64,000 nt of DNA from Bacteroidales bacterium (GTDB lineage: Bacteria; Bacteroidota; Bacteroidia; Bacteroidales; P3): positions 1,499 to 65,498 of the forward strand of contig JAFWQP010000044.1 in the NCBI GenBank assembly GCA_017509045.1, in the 5' to 3' direction. Each line of letters opens with the position of its first letter. The first letter of the stretch is position 1. The position numbers and the translations under genes were made by a program. Under the pieces are notes generated by a model. The model was not told the DNA's origin. It did not search any database and saw only the letters and a program-made list of their open reading frames with translations. Positions 44,379-62,008 of this stretch are shown piece by piece.

Positions 44379-45287
44379 ATGCAGTTCATCACATTCATGA
44401 TAGGTCCCCTTGTTGGCGCGGCGATTGGCGGTTTCACCAATCGTGTGGCCATACGCATGCTTTTCCGCCCCTATACCGCCAAATACATTGGCAAACTCCA
44501 TATTCCTCTCACTCCTGGCATAATCCCCAAGGAAAAGGCCAATATCGCCAAGGCCATCGGCTCCACCATTAGCGACAATCTGCTTAACAGTCAGGTTCTT
44601 TCCGCCACCCTTCTTTCCGATGATATGTGCGCCAAACTGTCCACCGCTGTCGACACCCTACAGACCCGTTTGCTTTCCTCACAGGCCAGTTTGCGCCATC
44701 ACCTGCTGCGCTACCTCACCCCCGACGAACTCGACAGCCTCTCCACTCAGCTGCAGTCCGATGCCACTCATGCCATCTATCTCAAACTTGCCGACAAGGC
44801 TCTGGGCGACAAAGTGGCATCACTGGCCATCGACCAAGTGATGCAACATCTCTCCGAGGGTTTTCTAGGTAGCATCAAGGCTGGCATCTTCGACCTCCTT
44901 CGCAATTCCATCCAGTCGCGCCTAGCCGACATTATCAACGAAATGCTCCACAACAACGCCCAACAGATGGTCGCCGACCTCCTCCACACCGAGGTCGACC
45001 GGCTGCTCTCAATGCCCGTATGCGACATCTGTCGGGGCAAAGAAGAACTCTTCGACCGCCTGCGCACCATCCTGCTAAAGGCTTATCGTATGATGGTCGA
45101 AAACAGCCTACCGCGTATGCTCGGCACCCTCAACATTCAGCGCATCGTCGAAGATCGTATCAACGATATGGACATGGCGGAGACCGAACAGCTTGTCACC
45201 ACCATTATGTCGAAAGAACTAAAGGCGTTGGTATGGTTCGGGGTGCTGTTGGGCTTCATCATGGGCTTCGTCACCAATATCATCTAG
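44379..45287 (+). CDS. DUF445-family membrane-associated protein
   Basis: N-terminal GPLVGAAIGGFTNRVAIRMLFRP and a C-terminal TM segment, as in the YheB/DUF445 family. Confidence 0.6.
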   Translation: MQFITFMIGPLVGAAIGGFTNRVAIRMLFRPYTAKYIGKLHIPLTPGIIPKEKANIAKAIGSTISDNLLNSQVLSATLLSDDMCAKLSTAVDTLQTRLLSSQASLRHHLLRYLTPDELDSLSTQLQSDATHAIYLKLADKALGDKVASLAIDQVMQHLSEGFLGSIKAGIFDLLRNSIQSRLADIINEMLHNNAQQMVADLLHTEVDRLLSMPVCDICRGKEELFDRLRTILLKAYRMMVENSLPRMLGTLNIQRIVEDRINDMDMAETEQLVTTIMSKELKALVWFGVLLGFIMGFVTNII

Positions 45288-45349
45288 CCACCATTAAGAT
45301 AACTTTCTTATTCATTCCATTCTTATTACGTAAAAATAGAACCCACCTA

Positions 45350-46312
45350 ATGGAAAAAGAACTCTATCTTGCCGCCGGCTGCTTTTGGGGCGCCGAGCAT
45401 TTTTTGAAACAAATCGAAGGTGTCACCTTTACCGAGGTGGGATTTGCCAACGGCAATACCCCTAATCCCACCTACAAAGAGGTCTATACCGACACCACAG
45501 GCTATGCCGAAACGGTGCATCTGCGCTACGACCCGCTGCGCGTCAGCCTGCGTTTCCTCTTGGAAATGTATTTCAAGGCCATCGACCCCACCAGCCTCAA
45601 TCAGCAGGGCGAAGACCGCGGCACCCGCTACCGCACCGGCATCTATTTTACCGACTCTGCCGACGAGCCCCTAGTCCGTTATATCATGTCCGAGGAGGCA
45701 AAACACTACGGCCTGCCCCTACAGGTAGAGGTGATGCCACTCGCCAACTTCTACCGTGCCGAGGACTACCATCAGGACTACCTCGTCAATAACCCCACTG
45801 GCTACTGCCACCTGCCTGTCGAGCTCTTTGCATACGCCCGCAACAATCGCGACACCGTCACTCTCGAAAAGTGCGAACGCTACAACCTGCTGTTGCGCCA
45901 ATTGTCAGCTTTGGCCGAAGGCGAAACCGACACCATTGCCCTAATGGCAAACACAGCCGCCATGCTTCACGACACCTTCCACTTCTGGTGGACGGGATTC
46001 TACCGCGTGGTGGGCGACGAACTGCTGCTTGGTCCCTTTCAAGGCCCCGTAGCCTGTATGCACATAGCCTTTGGTAGCGGCGTCTGTGGCACAGCTTGGC
46101 AGCAACGCCACACCCTTGTAGTCCCCGATGTGGAGGCATTTCCAGGCCACATCGCCTGCAGCGCCGCCTCGCGTAGCGAAATAGTGGTCCCTGTCTATGA
46201 CGGCGACAATGTCATAGCAGTGCTCGACATCGACAGCCAGCACTTCGCCACTTTCGACGACTGCGACCGCCACTTCCTTGAGCAACTAGTCGTGTTACTC
46301 AGCCCGGCATAG
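45350..46312 (+). CDS. msrA: Fusion of peptide-methionine (S)-S-oxide reductase MsrA with a GAF-type free methionine-(R)-sulfoxide reductase-like domain
   Basis: MEKELYLAAGCFWGAEHF (MsrA active site) through ...GYCHLP. This is followed by a ~155-aa GAF-like domain with GPVACMHIAFGSGVCGTAW and SEIVVPV. Confidence 0.82.
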   Translation: MEKELYLAAGCFWGAEHFLKQIEGVTFTEVGFANGNTPNPTYKEVYTDTTGYAETVHLRYDPLRVSLRFLLEMYFKAIDPTSLNQQGEDRGTRYRTGIYFTDSADEPLVRYIMSEEAKHYGLPLQVEVMPLANFYRAEDYHQDYLVNNPTGYCHLPVELFAYARNNRDTVTLEKCERYNLLLRQLSALAEGETDTIALMANTAAMLHDTFHFWWTGFYRVVGDELLLGPFQGPVACMHIAFGSGVCGTAWQQRHTLVVPDVEAFPGHIACSAASRSEIVVPVYDGDNVIAVLDIDSQHFATFDDCDRHFLEQLVVLLSPA

Positions 46313-46419: not shown

Positions 46420-47565
46420 TTATAATTTTTCAACAAAAACTATACAATATGGATTACTTCCATCTTCTCTGACATCGCACCAGATGCTTTCTTCTTCAAA
46501 TAATTCTATCTTTTTATAGTCCCAATCTTCATGTTCGTTCCTCCATATTTTAATACCCACCAACAAGGGAGATTCATTTTTGTTTATTATCTTTATGTTT
46601 TGCTGTTCATAATCTATTTTAAATGCTTTATTATACGTTGAAGTATTAATAATTGTAACAGAATCGGTGATAACATCAACTAATGTCCAATGTTCTTTTA
46701 TCAAATTCTCTTTCAAATTAAAGATAGTATAAACGAAATTACATAGTTTTGTCGAATAATTGCGCAGTTCGTAATTGCGCAGTTCGTAAATTGCTTGCAC
46801 GATAACAGATAAATTATGACCTCCTTCTCTCATAGTCAAATCTAACACAAACACCCATTTGCCATTTTTATTTGAAGAAGACTTAATGTTTACTTGCTGT
46901 AAATTGTTTTCATCAATTTTAAGATGCCATGAATTATTGAAAAAAGGATTATCTTCAGATCCTTTTAGTTTATGACCTTTTAGGTTTCTAAATATTTGTG
47001 ATTCATTTGGTTTTGCTGTTGGTATACATAACAAACAAAATTGAAATGAGTCGCTCTCAATAATTTTTTCAATAGTGGAATTGGCATCAAACGACGGATC
47101 CTTCAATGTTGCGTGAAATGATTTCTCAAACATTTTTTTTCTGTGCTTGTTCTCGTAATTTGCTTCTATTTTATCAAATTTAGCTTGTGCAGTTATCCGC
47201 TCTTGCTCATATTTTTTTTTATTTTTTTTGAGTATTTCTTTCAACGCTTGAGTCGCAATCTCCCTTGTCTCATATTTTACGTAGTCAAAAGTATCAATAA
47301 AATAATCTTTGTCATTATTCGTCTTTTCGACATATAGGTTCTGGTAATCGTTGATGCTTTTTGCTAGCTTCTCTCCCTCTAATTTAGCTTGATTGTCTCT
47401 TGAAATAGACAATACTAATATTCGAATACCTACAATCCCCCCAATGATAACCCCTAGATAAAGCAGCCATTTCAAGGAGTATCTATTATGGAGGCGCCTA
47501 CCACACATGTGGCAGTAAATTGCATAATTAGGATTATTTGCTTTACAAGTGTGACATCTCTTCAT
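46420..47565 (-). CDS. Zinc-ribbon, single TM, beta-rich C-terminal domain protein (island gene 16)
   Basis: MKRCHTCKANNPNYAIYCHMCGRRL (CxxC..CxxC), TM segment WLLYLGVIIGGIVGIRILVL, then ~320 aa of unknown fold. AT-rich codon usage. Confidence 0.6.
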   Translation of the reverse strand: MKRCHTCKANNPNYAIYCHMCGRRLHNRYSLKWLLYLGVIIGGIVGIRILVLSISRDNQAKLEGEKLAKSINDYQNLYVEKTNNDKDYFIDTFDYVKYETREIATQALKEILKKNKKKYEQERITAQAKFDKIEANYENKHRKKMFEKSFHATLKDPSFDANSTIEKIIESDSFQFCLLCIPTAKPNESQIFRNLKGHKLKGSEDNPFFNNSWHLKIDENNLQQVNIKSSSNKNGKWVFVLDLTMREGGHNLSVIVQAIYELRNYELRNYSTKLCNFVYTIFNLKENLIKEHWTLVDVITDSVTIINTSTYNKAFKIDYEQQNIKIINKNESPLLVGIKIWRNEHEDWDYKKIELFEEESIWCDVREDGSNPYCIVFVEKL

Positions 47566-47993
47566 GAGTAAAGTTGTTTGAGTTTTTTTGTATAGGTATA
47601 ACTCTCCAAAAGATGACGAGAACTCCAAAAAATATGCCCAATAAAGTTAATGTTAAGGAAATACATAACCATCTAATGTACAATAGTCCAACATCTGACT
47701 TCTCAAGTTCTTTAGGATAATACAAACAGAAGAGCACTTCTACATATTCTTTGTGGTTTTTCTTTTCCTTCCCAAATTCTTTTTTCGCAATATTGTTTGC
47801 GTATCTTCTTGCATCATATGCGGCTAACGTTCTTTCGAATTCGAATTTTCTTTATAATTTCTAACAGCCTAATGTCAAGCTCCGTTAATTCCTGTATATT
47901 AGGTTTTACAGATAGTTCTACTCCGTACTTATGACAAAATACCGCATCATGATCATGTTCTGTTATATTGCAATTAGGGTTCGGACATTTCAT
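47543..47993 (-). pseudogene. Frame-disrupted zinc-ribbon/TM gene (island gene 15)
   Basis: A 59-aa ORF at 47993-47814 (MKCPNPNCNITEHDHDAVFCHKYG...) stops at a TGA. A second frame is open from 47851 to 47543 and encodes ...KEYVEVLFCLYYPKEL... plus TM segment LCISLTLTLLGIFFGVLVIFW. The two frames overlap at a tcgaat tcgaat repeat. Confidence 0.45.
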
Positions 47994-48397: not shown

Positions 48398-48745
48398 TTA
48401 TGTATTTCTTTTACGGCCACATCTATGGCAGTATTTAGAGTATGTCTGATAATAATGAGTGTGACACTGAGGACATTCTTGGTCTGCATCTATTAATACT
48501 TCCTTTTTATTATGTTCTTTGGTGTTTGAAATAGACGTAGGTGGCATAATAACATTATTCGAATTAGTGGATATTTTTTTTTCATTAGACGAAGAGCTGT
48601 CAATATCCTTTATCTCGGCACAATACATTTCAATAGACTGGCATCCATCATCCTTTGTGAGACAATTAAGACAATCATTAGGTTGGGAAATACTGGTACT
48701 AACTGAAGCTAGTTCTGTCATTTGGTTATTATCTATCTCTTCCAT
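48398..48745 (-). CDS. Small protein with a C-terminal zinc ribbon (island gene 14)
   Basis: 115 aa ending ...ECPQCHTHYYQTYSKYCHRCGRKRNT. Confidence 0.6.
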   Translation of the reverse strand: MEEIDNNQMTELASVSTSISQPNDCLNCLTKDDGCQSIEMYCAEIKDIDSSSSNEKKISTNSNNVIMPPTSISNTKEHNKKEVLIDADQECPQCHTHYYQTYSKYCHRCGRKRNT

Positions 48746-48813: not shown

Positions 48814-50379
48814 TTATTGCACATTTTTTAGCCTTTCACGAATAGTTAGACATTCGTCATCTTGGAGAGGTTTGATTTGATATGTGCGAGAGGGAGACCC
48901 ATCGCTATTAACGGTCAGTGACATCAAACCACTCTTGTCTCGACTGATTGAAAAATTCACTTGTGTTTCTTTTGTTGTGGCATTTGGATTGGAAAATGTG
49001 TATTGTTCATAGAAAATGCGGCGATCGATGTTTCGTTCCTGGTCTTCTATTGGAAATGGGAAATCCTCTTCATCACGTTCATTTTCCCATATATCTACAG
49101 ATACTGCAGGCTGTCCGTTCTCATGGGGATTAAAAACATAATCTTTACTGTATTCCATATTTTCTGAATACCGGATAAGGTTCTTAATGTAAAAATTGAC
49201 TTTGTCATGATATAAAGTACCATATGAGTGAGAGGATAATTCATAAATGGAAGCCTTATTACTTTCTAATAGATATGCATATATTGCTGCACCTTCTGCG
49301 ATGGCTTGTCCAGGATTACCTTGAGGAAACCATTGATAGGGATCGCCTGTTCCTATTCGTCCACCATAATTGCGCATAAGAGTGTTGCGTATCATTGGCA
49401 TATATGATGATCCTCCGACTGTTACAAATCTCATCTGACGAAGTTCTGTTTCAGACAGTCCACTACGACGAATAGCCTCATCAACAACTAGAAGACATTG
49501 TTGGGTAAGTTGCATGGTGAGATTCTCGAAATTACTTCTCGTAATAGTAAACTCTTTGTCACATCTTGGCAAAATATCCGTACAAGATTCATCATCAGTA
49601 AGATTTTTCTTCACCACTTCGGCCCTGTTCATTATTGCCGCACGAAGACAACGTTGGTCTCCTGTTGGGTTATCGAAATCAACATTTATGTCAGACTGGT
49701 TTGCTATCTCTTCTGCAAGAAGTCTGTCCCAATCTTGCCCACCAAGATAATGCCCCAAAACGCCATAATCGCTTGATGAAGCAAGAACCCGATATTTGCC
49801 AGCCTCATAATGATGAACAATACTTACATCAAGAGTCCCTCCTCCTAGGTCGAAAACGAGAATTCGTTCGCCCGCGTTAATATTAAATGAAAGAGCGGCA
49901 GCAGTCGGTTCGTGAATAAGGCCCAATACTTCTATACCTGCCAATTCGGCTGCTTGTTTGGTTGCTGCCCGTTGCCATCCAGTAAAGCCTGTTGGGATAG
50001 AGATAACTGCACGCGGACGTGCTGTAACACCATTGGCTTTATTCTGTTCGAGTACTGGAGAGATTAGTTTACGCAATATGCACGCAGATCCTTCGATGGG
50101 CGACACCTTGCGTGTACCATCATTTGACGGTATTGTTTGTTCACAGTACTGATGACCCATCTGACGCTTAAAAAGAGACAATACTTGATCTGCAGCAATA
50201 TTGGATTCAGCTTGCCGTTTAGCGGTAGCCCCCACAAGTATTTTCCCGTCCGGTTTGAACTGAACGACTGATGGTAGAAAGTTGTGTCCGTTTTCAGTTG
50301 GGATAACTGATGGACGGTTGTATCCTTCAAATTGAGCAATGCAGGAATATGTAGTTCCTAAATCTATTCCGTAAACCAT
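48814..50379 (-). CDS. Hsp70 (DnaK-like) family ATPase with a short divergent C-terminal domain (island gene 13)
   Basis: GIDLGTTYSCIA, VFDLGGGTLDVSIV and VTVGGSSYMPMI are the three Hsp70/actin-fold signature segments. 521 aa against about 640 for DnaK. Confidence 0.9.
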   Translation of the reverse strand: MVYGIDLGTTYSCIAQFEGYNRPSVIPTENGHNFLPSVVQFKPDGKILVGATAKRQAESNIAADQVLSLFKRQMGHQYCEQTIPSNDGTRKVSPIEGSACILRKLISPVLEQNKANGVTARPRAVISIPTGFTGWQRAATKQAAELAGIEVLGLIHEPTAAALSFNINAGERILVFDLGGGTLDVSIVHHYEAGKYRVLASSSDYGVLGHYLGGQDWDRLLAEEIANQSDINVDFDNPTGDQRCLRAAIMNRAEVVKKNLTDDESCTDILPRCDKEFTITRSNFENLTMQLTQQCLLVVDEAIRRSGLSETELRQMRFVTVGGSSYMPMIRNTLMRNYGGRIGTGDPYQWFPQGNPGQAIAEGAAIYAYLLESNKASIYELSSHSYGTLYHDKVNFYIKNLIRYSENMEYSKDYVFNPHENGQPAVSVDIWENERDEEDFPFPIEDQERNIDRRIFYEQYTFSNPNATTKETQVNFSISRDKSGLMSLTVNSDGSPSRTYQIKPLQDDECLTIRERLKNVQ

Positions 50380-50405
50380 AATTATTTATTATTTTTTTGA
50401 ATTAC

Positions 50406-51383
50406 TCACTCACAAAGTATTACTTTCTCAGGACTTAACATGCTTTCAGGAAGCCCAGAAGATGCACGCCAAACCAAACGAGGCAAAACGGTATATGCCA
50501 CAGTATTTGATTCTTGTCCCAGTATAGAAATGGGGACATGCTCATCATCCACCTCCATAGTTGATGCATCAAAAGCAGTTCCAAGCTTGGAAATAATCGC
50601 TGTCAAACCGATAGAATCAAGATTTCTTCTAAGAAAGCTGAGGATTAACTCCAATTCATTCCCGTCATATTCTGGGTTATTCTCTTTTTTGTATAACAAA
50701 CGTTTGGCCGTACGTTCATATAGTTTTACAGGCATTTCGACGAGTTTATACATTAGTCTCTGATAAACAGACTCCGCGCATAATTCATTACTATTGGAGG
50801 AACTGGATGTTTGTGCAGTTATTGTTCTCGACAATTGGTCAATATTAAAACTAATGTTGTTCAGTGTATTACTTAACTCAGTTGATAACTCATCTGTTTT
50901 TCTTGCTGTATTAACGGTCATTTCAGGTTGTTTTTTTTGCTGTAACTGATTTATATTATTCCTGATGCTGTCAGCCAATTGCGAAAAACCTGTTGCCAAT
51001 TTTTCTTGCAGTTCTTTAATAGTTTGGATTGTGTTTGTGACAACATCCAAAGATTGACCATTCGGTAATGAACAAACCAAATCATTCAATTTAGACAACT
51101 CAGTAAAGAAGCTATCTTGTTGTACTTTTATCTCCATGATACTATTCATCGAATTGAGTATTGACTTGACACCCTGGCAGACTTCATTTTCTGAAGCAAT
51201 CAATGCATCAATTTTGTTTGTCTCTACCTCAGCACTATTATTCTCCGATTGCACCTCTGGAACGGTTTGTTTCTGTATTAGCCAAGCTATCTGTTCAAGG
51301 CTTAGGGGTACATTGTAGTATTTTACGCCATCTTTTGTCGTAATCGAAACAATATAGTCTATAGTATTCATATCCGAAATCAT
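50406..51383 (-). CDS. Coiled-coil protein with a GrpE-like C-terminal domain, putative dedicated nucleotide-exchange factor (island gene 12)
   Basis: Long predicted coiled coil, then ...LDSIGLTAIISKLGTAFDASTMEVDD...NTVAYTVLPRLVWRAS...LSPEKVIL. This parallels GrpE ...FGVEVI...G.PFDP..H.A......V......GY......R.A.V.V as I recall it. The gene directly precedes the Hsp70 gene. Confidence 0.5.
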   Translation of the reverse strand: MISDMNTIDYIVSITTKDGVKYYNVPLSLEQIAWLIQKQTVPEVQSENNSAEVETNKIDALIASENEVCQGVKSILNSMNSIMEIKVQQDSFFTELSKLNDLVCSLPNGQSLDVVTNTIQTIKELQEKLATGFSQLADSIRNNINQLQQKKQPEMTVNTARKTDELSTELSNTLNNISFNIDQLSRTITAQTSSSSNSNELCAESVYQRLMYKLVEMPVKLYERTAKRLLYKKENNPEYDGNELELILSFLRRNLDSIGLTAIISKLGTAFDASTMEVDDEHVPISILGQESNTVAYTVLPRLVWRASSGLPESMLSPEKVILCE

Positions 51384-52204
51384 TTTTTCTTTATTATTAT
51401 TGTAACTTGACCGATGATAATTCTGTCATCGTGTTGTAGCGATATCTCGTGGGGCTTATGACCCATGTAATTATGGTTCCAATCCCCCTCTTGCAATGTT
51501 GCTTTGAGAGTGAACGTATTTGTCGTGGGATTTTGGACTGCCTTGATAATGAAATGATTCTTTTTTACTTCAGGATCTCCTGTTTGTAACTTGCAACGCT
51601 GAGATCCTTGCGGAATATCGATAGTTCCTTTCCCAACATAGGTATCACCATAATATATTGGATGAATATCGTTAAGGCTGTTGGCTTCAGTTCCTCCAAC
51701 GTATACAACCATATAGGCTAAAGGGGTTTTGTTGTCATTAGTGTTCGGAAATGATGGCGTTTGGCTGCTCCCTTCTTGAGTTGCCTTCATCTCTTCTATC
51801 AGTTTCTCTAATTGTGTTTTTTCATTACTCAATCTTTCTCGTTCTACAGAAACTGAATCTAATTGCTGCTGTTTTTCAATGATTTGATTGCGTAAACCGA
51901 CGTTCTCCTCCGCAATTGCATTCTGTCTCTCTATTTGGGTCTTGAAATTGGATATTTGTTGTTCTAGTTTCGTGATTTTCTCCTGAGCTTTACAATTGTT
52001 TTCCGTTAGGGTGTCGATTTGCTCTTTTGAGTTATTGATTAGTTCCCAATTCCTTTTGGCAATTTTAATTCTTTGTGCATCTATCTGCTGGATGACAGGA
52101 TTAGGTGTAGACACCAACATCTGTCTGTTTTCAAATCCACATGTAGGACAGATGGAAGAACTGTGTGTTTGTCCACATACAGGACAAGTAATGTGTTGAT
52201 CCAT
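51380..52204 (-). CDS. Zinc-ribbon, coiled-coil, FHA-like domain protein (island gene 11)
   Basis: N-terminal CPVCGQTHSSSICPTCG, ~110-aa heptad-rich middle, and a C-terminal beta domain ...YYGDTYVGKG...KKNHFIIKAV...ISLQHDDRIIIGQVTIIIK with an FHA-like pattern (divergent). Confidence 0.55.
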   Translation of the reverse strand: MDQHITCPVCGQTHSSSICPTCGFENRQMLVSTPNPVIQQIDAQRIKIAKRNWELINNSKEQIDTLTENNCKAQEKITKLEQQISNFKTQIERQNAIAEENVGLRNQIIEKQQQLDSVSVERERLSNEKTQLEKLIEEMKATQEGSSQTPSFPNTNDNKTPLAYMVVYVGGTEANSLNDIHPIYYGDTYVGKGTIDIPQGSQRCKLQTGDPEVKKNHFIIKAVQNPTTNTFTLKATLQEGDWNHNYMGHKPHEISLQHDDRIIIGQVTIIIKKK

Positions 52205-52206
52205 AA

Positions 52207-52842
52207 TTATATTTTTATTGGTAATCTATTAAGTCTTTGTGCATTATGTTGTCTATCTAATGGTGAATTTCGCAAGTAGTATATTGTTTCTTTATCGGAA
52301 GCAATGACGAGAATGATTTTGTTCTCTGAAAGTAATTGATGAATTTTATCGATGATGCCAAGTGGATTACAATCATCCTCCTGATTGCCTTTTTCTTCTA
52401 TTTGGAATAATTTACACAAGAAAGTTTTCTCCACTCTATAAAGCAAGAGGATACCATTGCGGTAGTGTTCTGGGGGTGGGATTAGGGAAGAGTCTCCATC
52501 AACCACAACAATATGGCCAAGAAAATCCCAATTCTTTTTCTTGATTCTTGTCGACAATTGGCGTAACAAAACAATAATGGACTCTTTATCAACCAAGTTG
52601 GTATAAAATAGCCTCTTTTCCATACTATTATGTCTTAAATATTGCCAAGTAACAATAATTAAAAACAAAATGACAACCCCAATAATGTATAACGACATGG
52701 TACTATTGGATGTATTATTTGAGACTATTGATTCTATGCTGTCTTGATTCACTTTAGATGAGACATCCAGTATCACGCAGGATGAGTCTCCGTTCAAAGC
52801 ATTTAATGAATCATATAATAATCTATTGGATGTATCATTCAT
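52207..52842 (-). CDS. Single-pass membrane protein of unknown function (island gene 10)
   Basis: TM segment LYIIGVVILFLIIVTWQYL at about aa 50-70, then a ~140-aa alpha/beta-looking domain. Confidence 0.5.
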   Translation of the reverse strand: MNDTSNRLLYDSLNALNGDSSCVILDVSSKVNQDSIESIVSNNTSNSTMSLYIIGVVILFLIIVTWQYLRHNSMEKRLFYTNLVDKESIIVLLRQLSTRIKKKNWDFLGHIVVVDGDSSLIPPPEHYRNGILLLYRVEKTFLCKLFQIEEKGNQEDDCNPLGIIDKIHQLLSENKIILVIASDKETIYYLRNSPLDRQHNAQRLNRLPIKI

Positions 52843-52862: not shown

Positions 52863-55697
52863 TTATTGATTATTTTCCATCAAAGAAATCCCGTCTCGCA
52901 ATTCACTCACGGTGATTTGTTTAGAGGAATAACAGGCGTTTTGGACGCAAAAGGTACGGTGTGCGCTTATGATTTTGTCGACCAGATTGCGCACCCATCT
53001 GGCATTGTCTTTATTTGATATCACATAACCCATTAGTTCCTCTTTTGCATCATCGGTTAAAGTGTAACCTCTATTATCTAACATTGACGTGGCTATCTTA
53101 TACAATTCCTCCTTCGAATAGTCTCCTATGGTTATCCTATTTGGAAATCTACCAGACATTCCTGTGTTTACTTCATTCAAAAGTCGATCAATATTGTCTT
53201 TATAGCCAGCCATAATAACAACGATGTCATTACGATCATTCTCTAGGTATGAAACAAGCGTATTGACAGCCTCTATTCCACAGGAATCTTCCTTACCACG
53301 ATACAGAGAGTACGCTTCGTCAATGAATAGTACTCCTCCTTTTGCTGCCTGTATGCGTTGCGCCACATTGGGTGCCGTTTGCCCCTGGAAGCCAACAACT
53401 AGTTGTTCCCGCCTAACCTCAACAATATTTCGGCGAGGAAGAAGCCCCAATTCATAGTATATGTCTGCCAGCAGACGAGCAACAGTGGTCTTACCAGTTC
53501 CAGGATTTCCATACAAGATAAGGTGTTGTACTCCAAGGTCAGATGCTTTCCCTATGCGATGTCTGTATTCGGCATCATTTTTTAGCTGTTGCACATATTT
53601 CTTAACTTCCTGCATTCCAACAAGGTCTTCAAGCTGCTCAATTGCCGACCTAGTATCCTTTTGTCTAGCAGTTGTCAGTCCTGGGATAAAGCCATGTAGT
53701 TCCTCAATATCGGGTAGATTTCGAAAATCATCGAGAATAAGTCTATAGGGGTCTACCTCTGGGTTTTGAACACTGCGTATGGCAACTTTTGTTTCAACTG
53801 CACTCAATAAATTGCGAACCCACCTACCGTTACCAAAATTGTATGTTTCCTTTCGTTGTATACGTTGTTCATGATGATTATTGTCATTGATACGTTGGGC
53901 ATTAATGGATCTTACTTCGTCAGTACGTCTATCTTTGTATTCAATGACATAGCCCATCATATCGGAAAGCATTTGGTTAATCTCATCATTAATAACAAAA
54001 GAACGTTTTTGTGCCATCGAAACAAAGATTTGTTTCAATTCATCAGCCGAATAGTCGTCAAATAGGATGGTATGTTTAATACGACTTTTTAGACCAGGAT
54101 TGATGCTATAGAGAGATTTCATATTCTCTTCATAACCAGCAAAAATAACCACTAAGTCTTTTCGGTCGTTTTCCATCCTCGCCAAAAGAGTGTTGACGGC
54201 TTCGGCACCAAATTCGCGCGATCCACCCTCGGTAAGTCGATAAGCTTCATCAACGAAAAGCACGCCACCCATGGCGGAATCAATCACTTCGGATGTTTTT
54301 ATTGCTGTTTGGCCAACATATCCTGCAACAAGGTTTTCTGCACTTACCTCAATTAGTTGACCTTTGCTAACAACACCCAATTCTTTTAGTATTGCGGCAA
54401 CTATTCGTGCCACTGTAGTCTTACCTGTACCTGGATTACCTAAAAAAAGCATATGATTGCCATAATCGCCAACAGCATCTCTATTATTCCTCCTGTTGAG
54501 TTTTATTTGTGCCTTTATTCCGTCGATAGTTTCCTTTACTGACTGAAGACCTATTAAGTCATCTAGTTTTTGATTATTTTTCATTCCTAATTTCATTTTT
54601 CTTGTTTCCAATGAACTATAGTTTTCGAAACTGAGTGGATTATTTGAGGAGAGTGCTTGGTATGTTATATTTCTATGTTCTCTTAGCGAATGTTGATTAT
54701 CACCGGCAAGTGTTGCCAACACTGAAAGTTGGCGAGTCAATTCATCCAAAACGGCCCATTCGATATATGTGTTTGGATATTGAAGATGTTCCAGCTCAAT
54801 AATATTCTTAATGTCATTGGCTTGAGGTGCAGGTAAAAAAAAGGAATTATGGGAGAGACGTTTTATCGGTACTCCATCAGTGTCTTTAGGTGTCGAAATA
54901 TCATCAAGCATTGGTATGGTTTCTCTCCAAAGATTACAAAAATTTGTATTGGCAAAGAAAATACTTTGGGGCCTTTCCTTGAATATTTCACTCACAGCAT
55001 TGGTATTACCGCTGTCAACTGGCATTAACACGATGACCCTATTTTCAGCATTTGAGTTATGAGATTGACTTTCACCATATCTGCTTCCCAAAGTGTTAAC
55101 AAGAACATCATATAAATGGCTGCTGGTTGCTACTGAACATTCTCCTTCGTTGTAGTTAGAATCTATCACCAACACACTATTGGAAATACGCGTCAGGGAA
55201 TAGCATAGTTGCATAATGTTAGCATCTCGGTTTCCTCCTCTATGTTCTCTTGATTGTGACGAACTACTGCCTTTTCTCGTATATCTACTAATTTGGTCAT
55301 CATATAATATAACTTTTGATGGGTCCGTAACGACTGAAAGATTATCATTTATTAGGCTATTGTTGTCAGCCTGTTGCCTTGCACGACGAAATGGATTGCG
55401 TGGGTTTTCGCCTTTATTCATAGTTCTAGATTCCAACTCATCTGTATCTGCATTGACTTTTAAAGATTGGTCAGGATAAAGGAAATTGATTAACATCTCT
55501 TTGTCAAAACTGTTAGGGCCACTGACGGTACTATAGAAAATTATATTCTTATATCCCTCATGTTTCAGATATAGAAAAAGAGCCTTATGGATGTCGCCAT
55601 GTAAACGCAATGCAGAATCAATGAAGCAATCCGAGTAATAGAAGATTGCCGAAACCACAGGACGCTGACGTATATTAAGATTATTGAATCGATTCAT
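52863..55697 (-). CDS. Large ATPase with two SpoVK/CbxX/EccA-type AAA+ modules and a ~400-aa N-terminal region of unknown function (island gene 9)
   Basis: Two copies of the Walker A sequence GNPGTGKTTVAR, two Walker B motifs GGVLFVDEAY / GGVLFIDEAY, and NPGLKSRI / NTGMSGRF sensor regions. The ATG at 55697 lies 16 nt after the upstream stop, and the track start at 55781 is a TTG. Confidence 0.9.
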   Translation of the reverse strand: MNRFNNLNIRQRPVVSAIFYYSDCFIDSALRLHGDIHKALFLYLKHEGYKNIIFYSTVSGPNSFDKEMLINFLYPDQSLKVNADTDELESRTMNKGENPRNPFRRARQQADNNSLINDNLSVVTDPSKVILYDDQISRYTRKGSSSSQSREHRGGNRDANIMQLCYSLTRISNSVLVIDSNYNEGECSVATSSHLYDVLVNTLGSRYGESQSHNSNAENRVIVLMPVDSGNTNAVSEIFKERPQSIFFANTNFCNLWRETIPMLDDISTPKDTDGVPIKRLSHNSFFLPAPQANDIKNIIELEHLQYPNTYIEWAVLDELTRQLSVLATLAGDNQHSLREHRNITYQALSSNNPLSFENYSSLETRKMKLGMKNNQKLDDLIGLQSVKETIDGIKAQIKLNRRNNRDAVGDYGNHMLFLGNPGTGKTTVARIVAAILKELGVVSKGQLIEVSAENLVAGYVGQTAIKTSEVIDSAMGGVLFVDEAYRLTEGGSREFGAEAVNTLLARMENDRKDLVVIFAGYEENMKSLYSINPGLKSRIKHTILFDDYSADELKQIFVSMAQKRSFVINDEINQMLSDMMGYVIEYKDRRTDEVRSINAQRINDNNHHEQRIQRKETYNFGNGRWVRNLLSAVETKVAIRSVQNPEVDPYRLILDDFRNLPDIEELHGFIPGLTTARQKDTRSAIEQLEDLVGMQEVKKYVQQLKNDAEYRHRIGKASDLGVQHLILYGNPGTGKTTVARLLADIYYELGLLPRRNIVEVRREQLVVGFQGQTAPNVAQRIQAAKGGVLFIDEAYSLYRGKEDSCGIEAVNTLVSYLENDRNDIVVIMAGYKDNIDRLLNEVNTGMSGRFPNRITIGDYSKEELYKIATSMLDNRGYTLTDDAKEELMGYVISNKDNARWVRNLVDKIISAHRTFCVQNACYSSKQITVSELRDGISLMENNQ

Positions 55698-55713
55698 ATT
55701 CTTAACGTTTTTT

Positions 55714-57012
55714 TTACGGATTAATTGTGTGCTGACGTCGCTGAATACTGTGTCTTCGACTTGTTTCATCATTAATTTCAAGTGGTGAATTAATGTCTAT
55801 TGACTCTGGGTTGCATGGTGCCGAACTTGTCACTGTCATTCCACTGGCACGGAGATCTTCTAGTATTTCTTTCTCAAGAGTATCGAGTAGCTTTTGGTCA
55901 ATATAAGCACCACTGTCTACTCTCACAAGCGTATGAACATCCCCTTGTTCCTTGCCTGGACTGACTATTATTTCAACAATGGCCTTGTCAGACTGACGTA
56001 GCATTCTCAGGATGTAACTTTCTCGTTCATCATTGTGGACGAAACCTTCTGTAATAACTTGAAAATAATAGTCAGAAGACAAAATATCCCTTATGAAATC
56101 AGCTTGCTGATGTCGCAAAATGGATAGTTTGATTTCGGAGACGGTAGATGCTGCTTGCAATTCCTGCATTTTCTTCAATTCCACGAGACGAGTTAGGTCG
56201 GATTGTAATTGTTGCATTGAATAGGATGGCTGCAGATTAGCCGATTCCAACCTTCTTCTAATCTCGTTCAGTTCATCCTCTATTAATTTGTACTGTCCGT
56301 CAGTCCAATAATCAATATTGCTGGCGTGATGCTTCTCGTCGCCAAAAACAAAGGTGTTGTTGCGGTGTCCAGCCGCATCCGACAACATGGTATTTGACAA
56401 TTCTAGAGCCTCATTGAGTGTGTCATAGAATCGTATTCGTGCACTAGTGACCTCGCTGTCAGAAAGAAGTAAATCTGTCATGGCAGATTGCAACCTAGCA
56501 CGTTTGGCAAGAGGATTCATCTCTACAGAGGTTGCCTGATGAAGTGCGGCATCCACATTTAGAAGTCGTTGACTGGCAAATCTTTGGTAGTCTACATCTG
56601 ATTTAGCAATGCTAAATTCAATTTGTATTTGCTGATACAATTGTTCGGCATCTGAATAGTTGGCTGCTATCTGATTTGTTATGTCCGCCACATGTCTGGT
56701 GGATCTATCAATCTGTTCTTGCAATAGCTGTACTGAAGATGCCACTTGATTAATGTCTCCAACAATTTGATTATATTTTTTGATTCCCCTTCTTTCAATT
56801 TCATGCAAGGTATTGATATGGTGCTTCCGTTGTTCAGAAATATGCTGGTCTGTTTGCCCGATTCCATCCTGTATCTGTTTGAAAATAGCTTGTGCGCGAT
56901 TGACGGCTTGATCCATTACCCGTTTAGAAGCTTCGCCAGACCGTAGTCTTTCTATTTCATCCGTTATTGCAATATATTGCTCCGACTTAATTTTTGTTGT
57001 GTTTTCACTCAT
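55714..57012 (-). CDS. Coiled-coil protein, paralog B (island gene 8)
   Basis: 432 aa. Shares with paralog A the order coiled coil, IDYWT motif, helix, YYF-containing alpha/beta C-terminal domain. Confidence 0.6.
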   Translation of the reverse strand: MSENTTKIKSEQYIAITDEIERLRSGEASKRVMDQAVNRAQAIFKQIQDGIGQTDQHISEQRKHHINTLHEIERRGIKKYNQIVGDINQVASSVQLLQEQIDRSTRHVADITNQIAANYSDAEQLYQQIQIEFSIAKSDVDYQRFASQRLLNVDAALHQATSVEMNPLAKRARLQSAMTDLLLSDSEVTSARIRFYDTLNEALELSNTMLSDAAGHRNNTFVFGDEKHHASNIDYWTDGQYKLIEDELNEIRRRLESANLQPSYSMQQLQSDLTRLVELKKMQELQAASTVSEIKLSILRHQQADFIRDILSSDYYFQVITEGFVHNDERESYILRMLRQSDKAIVEIIVSPGKEQGDVHTLVRVDSGAYIDQKLLDTLEKEILEDLRASGMTVTSSAPCNPESIDINSPLEINDETSRRHSIQRRQHTINP

Positions 57013-57036: not shown

Positions 57037-58398
57037 TTAATGAAAAAGTTTTTGAGCCTTAAGATGTTCTGATAAGTGTATTCTGTCTGTAGAGGGCACA
57101 ATCTCATCTTCATCCTGTTGTGACGAAAATGTTTGCCCTCTCTTTTCTGTTTCCGACAAGACTATTCCAAGATCTAAGAGAGTTTTTTTGATATCATCAT
57201 ATAACTTTTGTTCAATATTATAATCAATATATCTATTATATGCATAATGACAAATCGTATCTATATTATCACTTCCATGGACGGGATTTAGGACCAATCT
57301 TAAGTTTATGTTTAGCGCGGGATTATTAAGGTATACCACATAGCCCAATCGGTCATCGTCGTCATCGTACCCATCAAGTGTAAGCGTAAAGTAATATTGA
57401 CGTACAAGCTCGGAAGTTGCCAACAGAGCAAGCTGGACTCTGGTTTTCGAATTCCGCAATGAAGTTATTGCAAGTGGTACAATACGGTCTATCCGTTCTA
57501 TCTGTCCTTTCAACAATTCGCGGTCTTGCCTTAGGTTTTCGACCATGTACCCTGGAGTGATTGTCGAATTTCTCATTCTTGGAACTATCACTTCCCGGAT
57601 ATAGTGTACTAAGCTGGAGAATTCGTTGTATGTCCAATAATCAATATCGATTTTTTCCTGCGGGTTGTCAGAGTCACTGTCATAATACAAATCATTTTCA
57701 TAATGACTTATTAATTGTAATGCTTGGTCGATTTGTCCATTGGCTTGTGCCAATTCGCTCAAGTATTCAATGCGTTTATGGTCCACCTCTTTTTGCCCTG
57801 CCTTAATGACTGTCATGATGTCCAATGCTATTGTCTGAAGAACAACTGCGGGAGATGTGTTGTTAATCTGATTGACTTTGAGAACCAACTCATTCAAGTC
57901 TCGCACGTTATATTTCTTCCAATAAGGATCTTCTTTTATGGAGTCGAACATCTCTATTGCCTGTTGGCAATTGAGATGTGCAATTTGTTTGTCTCGATCT
58001 GCTTCACGTTCTATTGCATCAATGTTTCGTTTTAGTTCTTGTTGTTGCTCTTGTTGCCGTTTTATTTGCTGCCTTATGTTTGATATTTCTTTTGCTAACA
58101 AGTCGTACTGTTTCTTCCCTTCAGAATACAGTCTATTTAACTCTTCTTCGCATTCTGCCAGTATTTGATCAATTACAGTCTGGTATTGTTGTCGTTCTCT
58201 ATCCCAAGTTTGCTGCATTTGGGCAATGAGATCAAGCATTCTTTGGGGATTCGCCTTTTGTGGTTTCTTACGAAGAACAGACAACTCATGCATGAGTCTA
58301 TCATAAGCATTATTGTCCAGATAAATATCGCTGTGGGTTTCTGGATTCCAATGCCCCCATATATATCTGTCATATTCGCTTCTGGTTCGTTTAGCCAT
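57037..58398 (-). CDS. Coiled-coil protein, paralog A (island gene 7)
   Basis: 453 aa. Contains IDIDYWTYNEF and ...VRQYYFTLTLDGY, compared with NIDYWTDGQY and ...SSDYYFQVITEGF in paralog B. Confidence 0.6.
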   Translation of the reverse strand: MAKRTRSEYDRYIWGHWNPETHSDIYLDNNAYDRLMHELSVLRKKPQKANPQRMLDLIAQMQQTWDRERQQYQTVIDQILAECEEELNRLYSEGKKQYDLLAKEISNIRQQIKRQQEQQQELKRNIDAIEREADRDKQIAHLNCQQAIEMFDSIKEDPYWKKYNVRDLNELVLKVNQINNTSPAVVLQTIALDIMTVIKAGQKEVDHKRIEYLSELAQANGQIDQALQLISHYENDLYYDSDSDNPQEKIDIDYWTYNEFSSLVHYIREVIVPRMRNSTITPGYMVENLRQDRELLKGQIERIDRIVPLAITSLRNSKTRVQLALLATSELVRQYYFTLTLDGYDDDDDRLGYVVYLNNPALNINLRLVLNPVHGSDNIDTICHYAYNRYIDYNIEQKLYDDIKKTLLDLGIVLSETEKRGQTFSSQQDEDEIVPSTDRIHLSEHLKAQKLFH

Positions 58399-58414: not shown

Positions 58415-59008
58415 TTAAATGTATTTTTCCCGTGGTGGTGCGATACCTACCGATATCATCTCCTCGTCGGAAAGGAGAAATAGTTGGCGTCTGGGATGAG
58501 GATGGCTTTCGAGTTCTTTCGCAAATGGTTGCAGACGTTCCGTAAAAAAATAGTATTTCTGGTTGGAACTGCCTCTTAGTCCTAAGTCATCGTTCAGGCT
58601 ATCAATATACGGTCCGTCTATAAGCAAGTCGACCAAGGTGGAAAGTTTAGAGCGTATGTTGTTGTCTATTTCGTCAAACAAAAATCCTGTGAAGAGAATG
58701 ATGTCCCATTCGGGGAGGAAAATACGAACATCTTGCAAAAGTGAAAATACAGACTGAGCCTGAATTAGTGGTTCTCCCCCACTAACGGTTAATCCACTGC
58801 AGTTACTCTGTTTCATGAGTTCAATTAACTCGACAGTTGAGTAGAATACACCTCCAGTCGTAGACTGCAAGTTTGGTGATGCGCAGCGAAAGCAACTACG
58901 ATTACACCCTTTTGTCCATAGCACGAAACGGTTGCCTGGTCCAAGAGAGTTTACTGGAAAGCAATAATATCCAATTTTGATTCTATATTCAAGTGGTTTA
59001 TTATTCAT
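58415..59008 (-). CDS. NrdG-like radical SAM activating enzyme (island gene 6)
   Basis: SLGPGNRFVLWTKGCNRSCFRCASP (CX3CX2C), SGGEPL, ILFTGFLFDEI and DGPYIDSLNDDLGLRGSSNQ. These parallel E. coli NrdG GPG..C..CPGC, SGGDP, VWTGYKLDEL and RGSSNQ as I recall them. Confidence 0.82.
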   Translation of the reverse strand: MNNKPLEYRIKIGYYCFPVNSLGPGNRFVLWTKGCNRSCFRCASPNLQSTTGGVFYSTVELIELMKQSNCSGLTVSGGEPLIQAQSVFSLLQDVRIFLPEWDIILFTGFLFDEIDNNIRSKLSTLVDLLIDGPYIDSLNDDLGLRGSSNQKYYFFTERLQPFAKELESHPHPRRQLFLLSDEEMISVGIAPPREKYI

Positions 59009-59037
59009 CTAGACCAATTTGGTTAATTGGATGTACA

Positions 59038-59541
59038 CTAGTAACTGAGAGATTCCATTGGCAGATTTCTACGTTTATTCACCTCTTCTTTTAAAATCTC
59101 TTCAACTGAGGATAGCTTCGATTCGATTTCAGAGAAAATGTTTTTTATTGCATCATTGTCTTTTAGATTATCCAACTGTTCAGAAACTTTTTTGACGAGT
59201 TCTTCGTGTTGCCGTATTCCTGACATTCGGTCATCGCATGCCGTGATAACCTCATTCCACTCTTTGTTTTTCAAATTAATGATGTTATTTTGTCTTTCTA
59301 TTTGTATCTTTATCATATCAGCAAAACGAGATTCTAGATCACAGAGATTTTGTTCATTAAGAGCAGCGTTTGAATACTCGGCCAAAATCTTTAATGCAAA
59401 CAAACGATGCAACGCATCATCATCTTTCAGCAAGAGATTTACAATATTATGAATCTGACCCTCAATATCAGAAAGTGTCAGTGTTGAGATTTCAGGCAGA
59501 TTCTCAATTAGAGATTCTATTTGATTTTGAATTGTAGACAT
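59038..59541 (-). CDS. Small coiled-coil protein (island gene 5)
   Basis: 167 aa, largely helical and heptad-like, with no recognisable motif. Confidence 0.5.
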   Translation of the reverse strand: MSTIQNQIESLIENLPEISTLTLSDIEGQIHNIVNLLLKDDDALHRLFALKILAEYSNAALNEQNLCDLESRFADMIKIQIERQNNIINLKNKEWNEVITACDDRMSGIRQHEELVKKVSEQLDNLKDNDAIKNIFSEIESKLSSVEEILKEEVNKRRNLPMESLSY

Positions 59542-59611: not shown

Positions 59612-60700
59612 TCATACCATTAATAAATCTTTGGTATTAGTTTCGTTTTCTGGAAACTTGACATCGTTTGATTGAGCTGAATTAATATCGGCAGTATCAT
59701 CTTTTTCATTAGTATCTGTGTTTGGAGTTATAACTTCATTATTGGGAAACAATACAACATCTTTGTTTAGTTCATTAGACGTAGTAATGTTAATTACGGT
59801 TTGTCCAAATACGTTTGTAGTACTATGTAGAGAAAAACAGAAGTATTTTACGCCTGACATCTCAATGTTGGGTACGGAATCATACACAAATTGCGACAGC
59901 GGGACTTTGGGTAAAAGGAAAAGATAATCCATATCTGTACCGTCAGGGACATACACAAGTTGTGTCGTTTCTGGTGTTAAGTAGCCATGGTGAATATCTG
60001 ATTCAGATACTGATGTCATTAGGCAAACTCGGTGATTAGATGGCACAGCACACATTTCTCTGCGGAATTCGGAAATAAGCTCATTGCTACAACAATCGAA
60101 TGGCGTTTTTTGAATTAGCAGCGATACTGTTGCACGTACCTGAAGTGCGAATGCCAGAGGTAATATCCTGCCGTCCTCTGACAGAATGATGACTTCTGCA
60201 TCAGTCGGCAAAGAACTTACTGCCTTGCTGCAAGAGTCCAATAATTGGTGAAATTTTATCTCGCTCGAATCATTAACGAACAATTCGTCGTACTTCTCAT
60301 CGTATCGTATTTTCCGCAACGGTTCATCCGGATAATGTCTAAAACACATTTTCCACCATTTGTCAGTACGAACCACGTCATATAGTTCACCAAGAATACC
60401 ATACAGCTCAGTCAACGCCTTTGGCATTGTTGGAAAAGAAACATTGAAATTGCCCTGTCCAATTGATTCTGAAAAAGGAATAAAATTGAAAGCGATAGTT
60501 TCCAACCTGTTTTTTAATGATAGAAATAATAAAATATTTTTGTTCGAAATATTCTCACAAAGGCCATTCTTCCATAGGATTGCCAATGCCGCTTCGGAAC
60601 TATGTACCACCCCACAATTCGACTCTCCGTTTGAGCAAGTGGAGGTTGGTAACTGCCTTAGCCATTGGCAATAATTGCTATATTCGTTTATTAGTCTCAT
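59612..60700 (-). CDS. Hypothetical protein with an N/T/D-rich tail (island gene 4)
   Basis: 362 aa with no motif I recognise. The last ~60 aa are low-complexity (NNEVITPNTDTNEKDDTADINSAQSND). Confidence 0.5.
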   Translation of the reverse strand: MRLINEYSNYCQWLRQLPTSTCSNGESNCGVVHSSEAALAILWKNGLCENISNKNILLFLSLKNRLETIAFNFIPFSESIGQGNFNVSFPTMPKALTELYGILGELYDVVRTDKWWKMCFRHYPDEPLRKIRYDEKYDELFVNDSSEIKFHQLLDSCSKAVSSLPTDAEVIILSEDGRILPLAFALQVRATVSLLIQKTPFDCCSNELISEFRREMCAVPSNHRVCLMTSVSESDIHHGYLTPETTQLVYVPDGTDMDYLFLLPKVPLSQFVYDSVPNIEMSGVKYFCFSLHSTTNVFGQTVINITTSNELNKDVVLFPNNEVITPNTDTNEKDDTADINSAQSNDVKFPENETNTKDLLMV

Positions 60701-61828: not shown

Positions 61829-61982
61829 AAAAAAGGGTCTAAGGGCCATTTTGCAGGCTGGGACAAGTCACTAACGCATATATATATATATATATTAGGC
61901 GTTTCAAGCAATTCAAAACAATTTGACAAAAAAATGCTTGAGAAAAAAGCTCTATGGGTCATTTTTCAGGCAGGGACTTGCC
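61829..61982 (+). repeat. Two ~40-bp imperfect direct repeats separated by an (AT)9 microsatellite
   Basis: aaaaaagggtctaagggccattttgcaggctgggacaagtc (61829) against aaaaaagctctatgggtcatttttcaggcagggacttgcc (61943). (at)9 at 61878-61895. Confidence 0.65.
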
Positions 61983-62000
61983 TGAATGTAAGGGATTGCG

Positions 62001-62008
62001 TATCTTTG
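62001..62008 (+). promoter_or_regulatory. -7 box (TATCTTTG) upstream of the transposase remnant
   Basis: Exact TAnnTTTG, 68 nt upstream of the ATG at 62076. Confidence 0.4.

Follow-up and report, generated by a model that had tools for sequence, protein, structure and literature searches.

What normally defines an Hsp70 cycle is a pair of co-chaperones, namely a J-protein that triggers ATP hydrolysis and an exchange factor that resets the chaperone. A stretch of 64,000 nucleotides from a Bacteroidales bacterium of the gut or rumen (contig JAFWQP010000044.1, positions 1,499 to 65,498), which will be referred to as the window, contains a low-GC island (~46.3-61.9 kb of the window, GC 0.36-0.39 compared to ~0.50 in the flanks, with sharp edges) in which a gene for an Hsp70 (48814..50379, minus strand) is directly preceded by a gene for a long helical protein (50406..51383, minus strand). 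A preliminary description, made from the sequence alone, regarded the two as an Hsp70 with its own GrpE-like partner. The locus raises the questions of what kind of Hsp70 this is, whether its neighbour is a GrpE, and what such a pair does in the island. On balance, the analyses reported here favour a dedicated Hsp70/exchange-factor pair within a conserved, horizontally mobile, multi-gene system of Bacteroidota of the conflict type, probably directed against invaders.

Identity and Domain Structure of the Hsp70

The 521-aa protein encoded by 48814..50379 is filed publicly as 'MAG: Hsp70 family protein [Bacteroidales bacterium]'. It matched the Pfam Hsp70 model PF00012 with an E value of 5.6e-63 (213.5 bits compared to a cut-off of 20.6; residues 2-436, profile positions 1-441 of 599), and the best PDB sequence matches were DnaK, BiP and Ssb (1e-45 to 1e-36). 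The catalytic residues D6, K71, E157, D177, T182 and D184 are invariant in the family alignment and the length of the Gly32 loop of DnaK is preserved, in agreement with the preliminary description, which had seen all nucleotide-binding signatures. An AlphaFold2 model calculated from a 63-sequence alignment (predicted local distance difference test score, pLDDT, 94.3; predicted template modelling score, pTM, 0.93) shows an actin-like nucleotide-binding domain (NBD), a beta-sandwich (377-501) and a lone helix (507-517), after which the protein ends. Foldseek superposed this model on two-domain ATP-state DnaK (4B9Q and 5NRO, the latter being the complex of DnaK with a J-domain) and on BiP, with template modelling (TM) scores of 0.74-0.77 over ~560 columns.

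Based on alignment to DnaK NBD structures, the NBD comprises residues ~1-372 (49264..50379, minus strand), followed by the substrate-binding beta domain (SBD-beta) at residues ~377-505 (48865..49251, minus strand; model strands 377-501) and by the single C-terminal helix (residues 507-517; 48829..48861, minus strand), which represents the first lid helix, the remaining lid being absent. SBD-beta was alignable with DnaK up to residue 436 by HMMER and up to the protein end by MAFFT, the latter placing the window sequence 'TQVNFSISRDKSGLMSLTV' opposite DnaK 'IEVTFDIDANGIVNVSA' and the terminal helix opposite the first lid helix. The C-terminus corresponds to approximately DnaK residue 524, and the canonical helical lid (SBD-alpha) and the tail are missing. 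With 521 compared to 638 aa for E. coli DnaK, the protein is 117 aa shorter, very close to the earlier estimate of ~120 aa. The accompanying proposal that its C-terminal region is unrelated to the canonical substrate-binding region has to be abandoned, as a canonical SBD-beta is present at ~377-505 and only the lid is lacking. As judged from the model, the predicted C-terminus is a canonical SBD-beta minus the lid beyond the first helix.

A Separate Hsp70 Clade without the J-Domain Interface

Hsp70s of this architecture (490-567 aa) form about a hundred 90%-identity clusters, nearly all of which are metagenomic. A neighbour-joining tree (100 bootstraps) was calculated from 60 of these short family members, seven metagenomic DnaKs and E. 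coli DnaK, HscA and HscC. The short Hsp70s formed one clade in 100 of 100 bootstraps, apart from DnaK, HscA and HscC, to each of which the window protein is 27-28% identical. Scores against the NCBIfam equivalog models were far below the cut-offs for DnaK (208.4 bits compared to 648 for NF001413 and 206.1 compared to 822.55 for TIGR02350, ids and scores being paired in the order given) as well as for HscA (205.7 bits compared to 708.55, TIGR01991); therefore the window Hsp70 is neither DnaK nor HscA. A housekeeping identity as DnaK, HscA or HscC was thus rejected on the basis of these scores, for the first two, and of the clade separation, and the placement suggested in the preliminary description puts the protein outside all three clades.

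The 60 family members have retained the ATPase and lost the surface that senses J-proteins. In DnaK numbering, D8, K70, E171, D194, T199 and D201 are invariant in 60/60, whereas Arg167 is replaced in every one of them (Gly in 52, Ala in 5, Gln in 3) and Asn170 is changed to His or Gln in 55/60. The hydrophobic VLLLD linker is lost as well, polar or acidic residues taking its place (e.g., L392 to Glu in 31/60). DnaK, HscA and HscC all retain R167 and N170. In the J-domain it is the HPD loop that Arg167 and Asn170 touch, as in the complex 5NRO, and the linker belongs to the same allosteric trigger; in suppressor genetics the DnaK exchange R167H reportedly suppresses DnaJ D35N. The systematic loss of Arg167, Asn170 and the linker fits an Hsp70 that, judging from the alignment, may be unresponsive to J-proteins. 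No HPD tripeptide was detected in stop-to-stop frames of >=50 aa between 46000 and 62000, and none of the 13 island proteins showed a DnaJ match in Pfam. The earlier statement that the island lacks a J-protein is consistent with these empty scans and gains weight from the altered interface.

The Partner Gene and Its Family

The partner gene (50406..51383, minus strand) encodes 325 aa, or 321 aa from an alternative start at 51371. Its ATG overlaps the TGA of the gene upstream (ATGA), and the NCBI model (P0001, 321 aa) begins four codons later; the public record reads 'MAG: hypothetical protein IKH33_03405 [Bacteroidales bacterium]'. An A/T-rich spacer (50380..50405), read directly from the letters, separates it from the Hsp70 gene and has the 26 nt given in the preliminary description. 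The long coiled coil described there corresponds to a protein made up mostly of long helices followed by a compact C-terminal domain. A small N-terminal beta-hairpin plus helix (residues 7-38; 51270..51365, minus strand) is common only to the closest homologs, P0002 and P0003. It is followed by a long stalk of three helices (residues 54-194; 50802..51224, minus strand), assigned by DSSP on the AlphaFold2 model and showing weak coiled-coil-type matches only. The GrpE-homology region (residues ~200-325; 50409..50786, minus strand) consists of helices 200-235 and 242-257 and a six-stranded beta domain at 260-324, and pLDDT exceeds 90 over the last ~120 residues.

Only three close homologs of the full-length partner were found among 5.8 billion proteins. 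Genes located upstream of related Hsp70s share the last ~125 residues (e.g., BLASTP 3e-12 over 80 residues for the gene of locus L003), and a family-profile search of 1.84 billion representative proteins yielded 84 clusters; the GrpE-like family is therefore rare. A family hidden Markov model (HMM) constructed without the window clade matched just one of the 383 open reading frames (ORFs) of the window, the partner itself (3.2e-17). The most conserved part of the family is a GrpE-like motif (G..FD...ME...V...P...EKV).

Similarity of the Partner to GrpE

Evidence for a GrpE came from the homologs and from the predicted structure. Pfam GrpE (PF01025) was the sole recurrent family among partner homologs, detected in 3/10, 15/37 and 6/73 members with E values of 1.4e-5 to 6e-4 (19.9-25.2 bits) and collinear over profile positions 6-144 of 165; one homolog, P0128, carries a precomputed PF01025 match. 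When the AlphaFold2 model of the partner was compared by Foldseek to 350,542 PDB chains, the top five matches were all GrpE or GrpEL1 (human GrpEL1, E. coli GrpE (1DKG), T. thermophilus GrpE and a GrpE-DnaK model), with E values of 1.7e-3 to 6.4e-3 and probabilities of 0.98-1.00. The alignments covered ~173 columns with targets of 158-164 residues, and the sixth match fell to an E value of 0.18. A significant structural match to GrpE thus exists for 50406-51383.

The model has the layout of the GrpE fold, with long helices (54-194), bundle helices (200-235 and 242-257) and a beta domain (260-324), and this order of stalk, bundle helices and beta domain is textbook GrpE architecture (PMC4753570). 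The GrpE motif FDPxxH appears in the family as G-T-x-F-D-x-x-x-M, in which the Gly is nearly invariant and the Pro is found in some members only. Minor support was obtained by hhalign, which aligned the family with three GrpEs collinearly over GrpE residues 38-188 (single-comparison P 0.0065); further runs with one or three GrpEs were likewise collinear but weak (E 0.063 and 0.009, global 0.11).

Conservation of the Pair and Its Gene Neighbourhood

In 12/12 loci the Hsp70 gene is directly preceded by a gene for a partner homolog. These loci are the window, six that were reached through Hsp70 homologs (L001, L003, L006, L007, L008 and L009) and five metagenome loci. The latter were retrieved by a DNA pattern for the clade motif 'G-L-[ILV]-x-EPTAAA', and the ORFs of 120 such loci were classified with two family HMMs; five of the 120 carry a clade Hsp70 of >600 bits, and in 5/5 the GrpE-like ORF lies directly upstream. 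Searching with partner alignments returned one genome locus, L005, of the same contig type as L003, and none in viral contigs. Across the 12 loci the pairwise distances of the two proteins are strongly correlated (r 0.95, Mantel p 2e-4), with the partner evolving faster (maximum distance 0.84 compared to 0.66 for the Hsp70). This co-divergence means that the two genes are inherited together; it does not by itself indicate that their products interact.

The gene order around the pair is kept at 42-67% Hsp70 identity (L001, L003) and defines a syntenic cluster of 10-13 genes. It starts with a ~310-365-aa protein, a ~167-aa helical protein, an NrdG-like radical-SAM protein and two paralogous coiled-coil proteins, and continues with a ~900-970-aa double-AAA+ protein, a zinc-ribbon/coiled-coil/FHA-like protein, the GrpE-like protein and the Hsp70, often followed by a small disordered protein with a zinc-ribbon tail. 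In several relatives the GrpE-like module is duplicated in tandem (L003 8627-9250 and 9263-9961; L006 7729-8865 and 8858-9994), fused to an FHA-like domain (L006 7729-8865) or provided with an N-terminal SpoVK-type AAA+ domain (L008 8449-9978, P0159, P0160 and P0165). The large AAA+ protein additionally carries a trypsin-like protease in L006 (3382-6750, 1122 aa) and L008 (14970-20021, 1683 aa). Genes of the mobile and defence type also adjoin the related loci: L008 is flanked by TraM/TraG of a conjugative transposon, and others have HEPN-MNT pairs, a NERD/kinase/PP2C/FHA cluster or a UvrD-type helicase of 1607 aa as neighbours.

Alternative Explanations

Several observations weigh against a functional GrpE in a defence-related unit. 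Searched alone against Pfam at E<=0.1 and E<=10, both as full-length protein and as C-terminal half, the partner gave no GrpE match, and neither did NCBIfam, PADLOC, PHROGs or PDB sequences, in which nothing meaningful was obtained. No family member attains the gathering score of PF01025 (best 25.2 compared to 25.8 bits), canonical GrpEs are absent from the 84 clusters of the family profile, hhalign probabilities are low (<10%), and the His of FDPxxH is an invariant Met in the family. The Foldseek matches have E values of only ~1e-3, TM scores of 0.25 (query-normalised) and 0.45 (target-normalised) and a high root-mean-square deviation, which is due to a stalk that is modelled as bent back on itself in the monomer. 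In the PDB, the full-length family profile retrieved nothing but designed coiled coils and heptad repeats of viral spikes, matches that were rejected as artefacts of stalk composition, and the C-terminal profile found no GrpE among PDB sequences but only Mediator Med7 (E 0.29). In addition, the co-divergence of the pair is expected from linkage alone, and a PADLOC-DB v2 scan of the island proteins matched no named anti-phage system; partial or generic matches were restricted to PDC-M61B (6e-7, part of the Hsp70), an IetA-type AAA (6.5e-22) and coiled-coil noise to LmuB. With all sequence evidence below threshold, low TM scores and profiles that draw mostly designed coiled coils, the likeness to GrpE might be convergent or due to chance, and the partner would then add one more to the coiled-coil proteins of the island, its small beta domain being unrelated to GrpE. 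We consider this improbable, as independent methods single out GrpE from 24,736 Pfam models and 350,542 PDB chains, the matches are collinear across helix, bundle and beta regions, and adjacency to an Hsp70 gene in all 12 loci is not predicted for a random coiled-coil protein. The partner is probably a diverged GrpE homolog, although not one to be filed as a PF01025 member. Accordingly, the beta-domain likeness claimed in the preliminary description is upheld by the conserved motif, by Foldseek and by the matches of homologs, while the HMMER check recovered the expected family for the Hsp70 and left the partner itself without a PF01025 match. A homolog of GrpE might nevertheless have given up nucleotide exchange and act as a structural tether or regulator, parking the Hsp70 on a coiled-coil/AAA+ scaffold or holding it in a nucleotide-free, inactive state until a trigger arrives. 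The extreme divergence from GrpE, the lost histidine, the greatly lengthened stalk of three long helices and the fusions to AAA+ and FHA-like domains would all suit such a role, which we nonetheless regard as rather unlikely: the beta 'wedge' domain is the best conserved and best modelled part, as expected under selection on contact with the nucleotide cleft, and the Hsp70 keeps all catalytic residues, so that it cycles and needs ADP release. Moreover, tethering and exchange are compatible, since BAG-type nucleotide exchange factors (NEFs) do both (PMC4753570).

The pair could also be an accessory proteostasis module for stress tolerance, carried on a mobile element, that backs up DnaK/GrpE of the host when heat or oxidative stress sets in and has no link to conflict. 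The intact ATPase and peptide-binding domain, the mobile context and the failure to recognise a known defence system all agree with this explanation. Nevertheless, it has little probability in our view. The lid is lost, and so is the J-interface in 60/60 members, while classical Hsp70 folding activity depends on J-proteins. Further points against it are the location of the pair in a conserved cluster of 10-13 genes, whose products include AAA+, radical-SAM, zinc-ribbon and FHA-like proteins, the trypsin-like protease fusions in relatives, neighbours typical of defence islands and the extreme rarity of the family, with 84 clusters in 1.84 billion representatives. It is this context that suggests a defence or conflict function, and a dedicated pair in a conflict-type system remains the reading we favour.

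Proposed Mechanism

According to the favoured reading, the Hsp70 would be a working ATPase that has kept its peptide-binding beta domain intact and samples peptides rapidly; as there is no lid, fast binding and release of clients is expected rather than trapping. Having lost the J-domain trigger surface, i.e., the Arg167/Asn170 patch and the hydrophobic linker, it would presumably not be set in motion by a J-protein. The GrpE-like partner, by analogy with GrpE-DnaK, may dimerise, push its beta domain into the nucleotide cleft of the Hsp70 and reset the ADP state; physical binding of the two proteins and exchange activity are both implied by this proposal. Since relatives carry the GrpE-like module on one chain with an AAA+ or FHA-like domain, it is probably also a handle that couples the Hsp70 to the AAA+ and zinc-ribbon/FHA-like proteins. 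These proteins, in place of a J-protein, might deliver clients or trigger hydrolysis. Client recruitment by the zinc-ribbon or FHA proteins, as put forward in the preliminary description, has become more plausible through the conserved synteny and through relatives in which FHA-like and AAA+ domains are joined to the GrpE-like module.

A further, clearly more tentative possibility is a chaperone-based immune or conflict machine, in which a J-independent, lid-less Hsp70 senses foreign or aberrant polypeptides by fast sampling and a GrpE-derived, universal docking handle connects it to a tandem AAA+ unfoldase of the CbbX/EccA type (with a protease attached in relatives), zinc-ribbon/FHA-like adaptors and a radical-SAM enzyme. 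If true, this would be the first bacterial Hsp70 cycle run without any J-domain protein. Engine and putative exchange factor are kept whereas lid and J-interface are gone in all 60 sampled members, and the family therefore represents a natural test of J-domain-free Hsp70 triggering. The partner further indicates that the GrpE fold can diverge past HMM recognition, and its relatives show the fold attached to AAA+ and FHA-like proteins, a use that recalls the BAG domains of eukaryotes. Should the 10-13 genes of the cluster make up a defence system, chaperone-based sensing would join the immune repertoire of a dominant gut phylum.

Other Genes of the Island and Related Loci

All sizeable island genes lie on the minus strand, to which all positions in the following description of the island genes refer. 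The first gene of the conserved cluster (59612..60700, 362 aa) has positional equivalents in L001 and L003 and no match in Pfam, NCBIfam, PADLOC, PHROG or PDB. A 167-aa helical protein (59038..59541) always precedes the gene for an NrdG-like radical-SAM activase of 197 aa (58415..59008; Fer4_12 2.4e-28; TIGR02491 1.8e-24, below the cut-off), which is kept in L001, L003, L006 and L008. The two-gene unit, with helical proteins of 143-168 aa, occupies 58415-59541 in the window, 974-2104 in L001, 1193-2204 in L003, 989-1998 in L006 and 12140-13158 in L008. Near the activase there is neither a gene for a glycyl-radical enzyme nor one for any other obvious substrate.

Two coiled-coil proteins of 453 aa (57037..58398) and 432 aa (55714..57012, with its position kept in L001 and L003) are distant paralogs (BLASTP 2e-5 over ~220 residues) with a common C-terminal alpha/beta region, and neither had a family match. 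The 972-aa protein encoded by 52863..55781 combines an N-terminus of ~390 aa, which resembles nothing known, with two AAA+ modules of the CbbX/EccA1/SpoVK type (PF00004 twice, 6.4e-37). It matched NCBIfam TIGR02881, TIGR03922 and TIGR02880 as well as CbbX (3zuh, 7e-48) and EccA1 (9lur, 3e-45) in the PDB; where it truly starts is uncertain, as the ORF with the TTG start runs into the gene upstream. Next follows a 211-aa protein with one predicted membrane helix (52207..52842). The idea that it is a second GrpE-like paralog, comparable to those of L003 and L006, was rejected, as the family HMM gave no match even at E<=10.

The conserved neighbour of the pair (51380..52204) is a 274-aa zinc-ribbon/coiled-coil/FHA-like protein with an N-terminal CxxC...CxxC motif, and the same gene type was found in L001, L003, L006, L007, L008 and L009. 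Its FHA assignment stays weak, with a Pfam E value of 0.0034 on the isolated domain, FHA matches in 3/8 orthologs and no matches of the FHA-like domain profile to PDB sequences. Directly downstream of the Hsp70 gene, 48398..48745 encodes a small low-complexity protein of 115 aa with a C-terminal zinc ribbon (DZR 0.0066), a candidate client or adaptor. Equivalents with a low-complexity or disordered sequence and a CxxC...CxxC end are present in L007 (11608-11973) and L009 (11707-12033). A 59-aa zinc-ribbon ORF (47814..47993) is doubtful as a real gene. The last island gene (46420..47628, ~381 aa from an internal ATG; DZR 0.011) encodes a protein with a zinc ribbon and a membrane helix; in 46420-47565 these are joined to a large C-terminal region without a recognised fold. 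In total, four ORFs of the island carry zinc ribbons (46420-47628, 47814-47993, 48398-48745 and 51380-52204).

At the left boundary (45020-46312) the island adjoins a gene for an MsrA-GAF methionine sulfoxide reductase, the listed ORF of which has an implausible N-terminal extension of ~110 aa. Transposase-like ORF fragments are found at the right boundary (61952-63089), and there are no tRNA genes anywhere in the window. A phage origin of the pair was considered and rejected, since no relatives were detected in viral contigs and PHROG matches were generic only.

Three further observations were made in related loci. Beside the Hsp70 module, L007 (12041-21611) and L009 (13727-21704) contain a conserved divergent cluster for a NERD protein, a Ser/Thr kinase, a PP2C phosphatase and an FHA protein, together with two small products and one giant of >1,700 aa, which looks like a second conflict-type system. 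Upstream of the zinc-ribbon/FHA-like gene, and fused to it in L009, the same two loci carry genes (L007 7795-8664, L009 7682-9070) with an R-N-x-S-S-H (Rx4H) motif recalling HEPN RNases, for which Pfam HEPN_Apea reached only an E value of 0.063. Finally, a neighbouring Hsp70 subgroup (L044 286-1578/1606-3159 and L118 8328-11201) scores 488 bits with the clade HMM. The ORF upstream of these Hsp70 genes ends in '...IRQEEVIKLK' and may encode an even more diverged GrpE-like partner; its score with the partner HMM (10 bits, high bias) is unreliable.

Comparison with Known Systems

The E. coli DnaK-GrpE(-DnaJ) system (1DKG, 4B9Q, 5NRO) resembles the window pair in the catalytic residues of the NBD, in SBD-beta and in the GrpE layout of stalk, bundle and beta domain. 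In contrast to DnaK, the window Hsp70, at 28% identity to the E. coli protein, belongs to a clade of its own, has no lid past the first helix and is changed at R167, N170 and VLLLD. The partner differs from GrpE in scoring under every GrpE HMM threshold, in a threefold longer stalk and in an extra N-terminal mini-domain. Whereas DnaK and GrpE work with DnaJ, the window pair shares its low-GC island with at least ten other genes, and no J-protein is among their products.

HscA/HscB and HscC/DjlB/DjlC are likewise specialised, non-housekeeping Hsp70s whose genes adjoin those of their own co-chaperones, and HscC, with 556 aa, is also short. Both HscA and HscC need J-proteins of their own and function without GrpE (PMC4753570). 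The window Hsp70 follows the opposite co-chaperone logic: it is accompanied by a GrpE-like partner instead of a J-protein and lacks R167, a residue that both HscA and HscC have kept.

Type III CoCoNuT McrBC systems contain CnuD/Hsp70-like NBD-SBD units, and SpoVK-type ATPases occur in their extended operons (Bell et al. 2024, eLife; PMC11090510). The Walker-like motifs of CnuD are degenerate, and the protein, which is linked to McrB/McrC, is predicted to bind RNA and to show little ATPase activity; no GrpE has been reported for it (PMC11090510). By contrast, the catalytic residues of the window Hsp70 are invariant, and Pfam and PADLOC scans revealed no McrBC genes in the island. A lid-less DnaK-like domain with ~50% identity to DnaK has been described on death-effector modules with EACC1 proteases, where a role in sensing proteins, as opposed to refolding them, was proposed (bioRxiv 2025.11.14.688446; PMC12642450). 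These modules share with the window system an Hsp70 without lid helices in an immunity-type context, and relatives of the window locus have a protease as well, on the AAA+ protein. In the EACC1 modules, however, the Hsp70 is fused to the protease and no GrpE was described, whereas the window Hsp70 is free-standing, is only 28% identical to DnaK and has an obligatory GrpE-like neighbour.

In eukaryotes, NEFs with a BAG domain combine an exchange module with varied extra domains and thereby recruit Hsp70 to particular machines (PMC4753570). To the GrpE-like fusions with AAA+ and FHA-like domains they offer a functional analogy only, as BAG is an unrelated three-helix bundle, and no homology is implied.

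No description of the present Bacteroidales cluster was found in the literature, the collection searched being incomplete. A parallel in composition comes from the GTPase-centric GAP1-N2 conflict systems of actinobacteria and firmicutes, which encode an HSP70, a recognisable GrpE and an FNIII protein fused to DnaJ or bearing TPR repeats (Kaur, Burroughs, Iyer, Aravind 2020, eLife; PMC7159879). Among the 13 island proteins no GTPase, FNIII, DnaJ or TPR match was obtained, and the core that defines GAP1-N2 systems is thus missing. Compared to these systems, the window and its relatives have Bacteroidota as hosts, a lid-less Hsp70, a cryptic GrpE and, as associated proteins, tandem CbbX-type AAA+, radical-SAM and zinc-ribbon/FHA-like proteins. 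What both probably have in common is a dedicated Hsp70 plus GrpE in a multi-gene conflict locus rather than in a housekeeping setting. The co-option of Hsp70/GrpE pairs by conflict-type loci is already known, and the window pair is a probable variant of this theme, set apart by its clade-wide loss of the J-interface, its cryptic GrpE and the fusions of the GrpE module.

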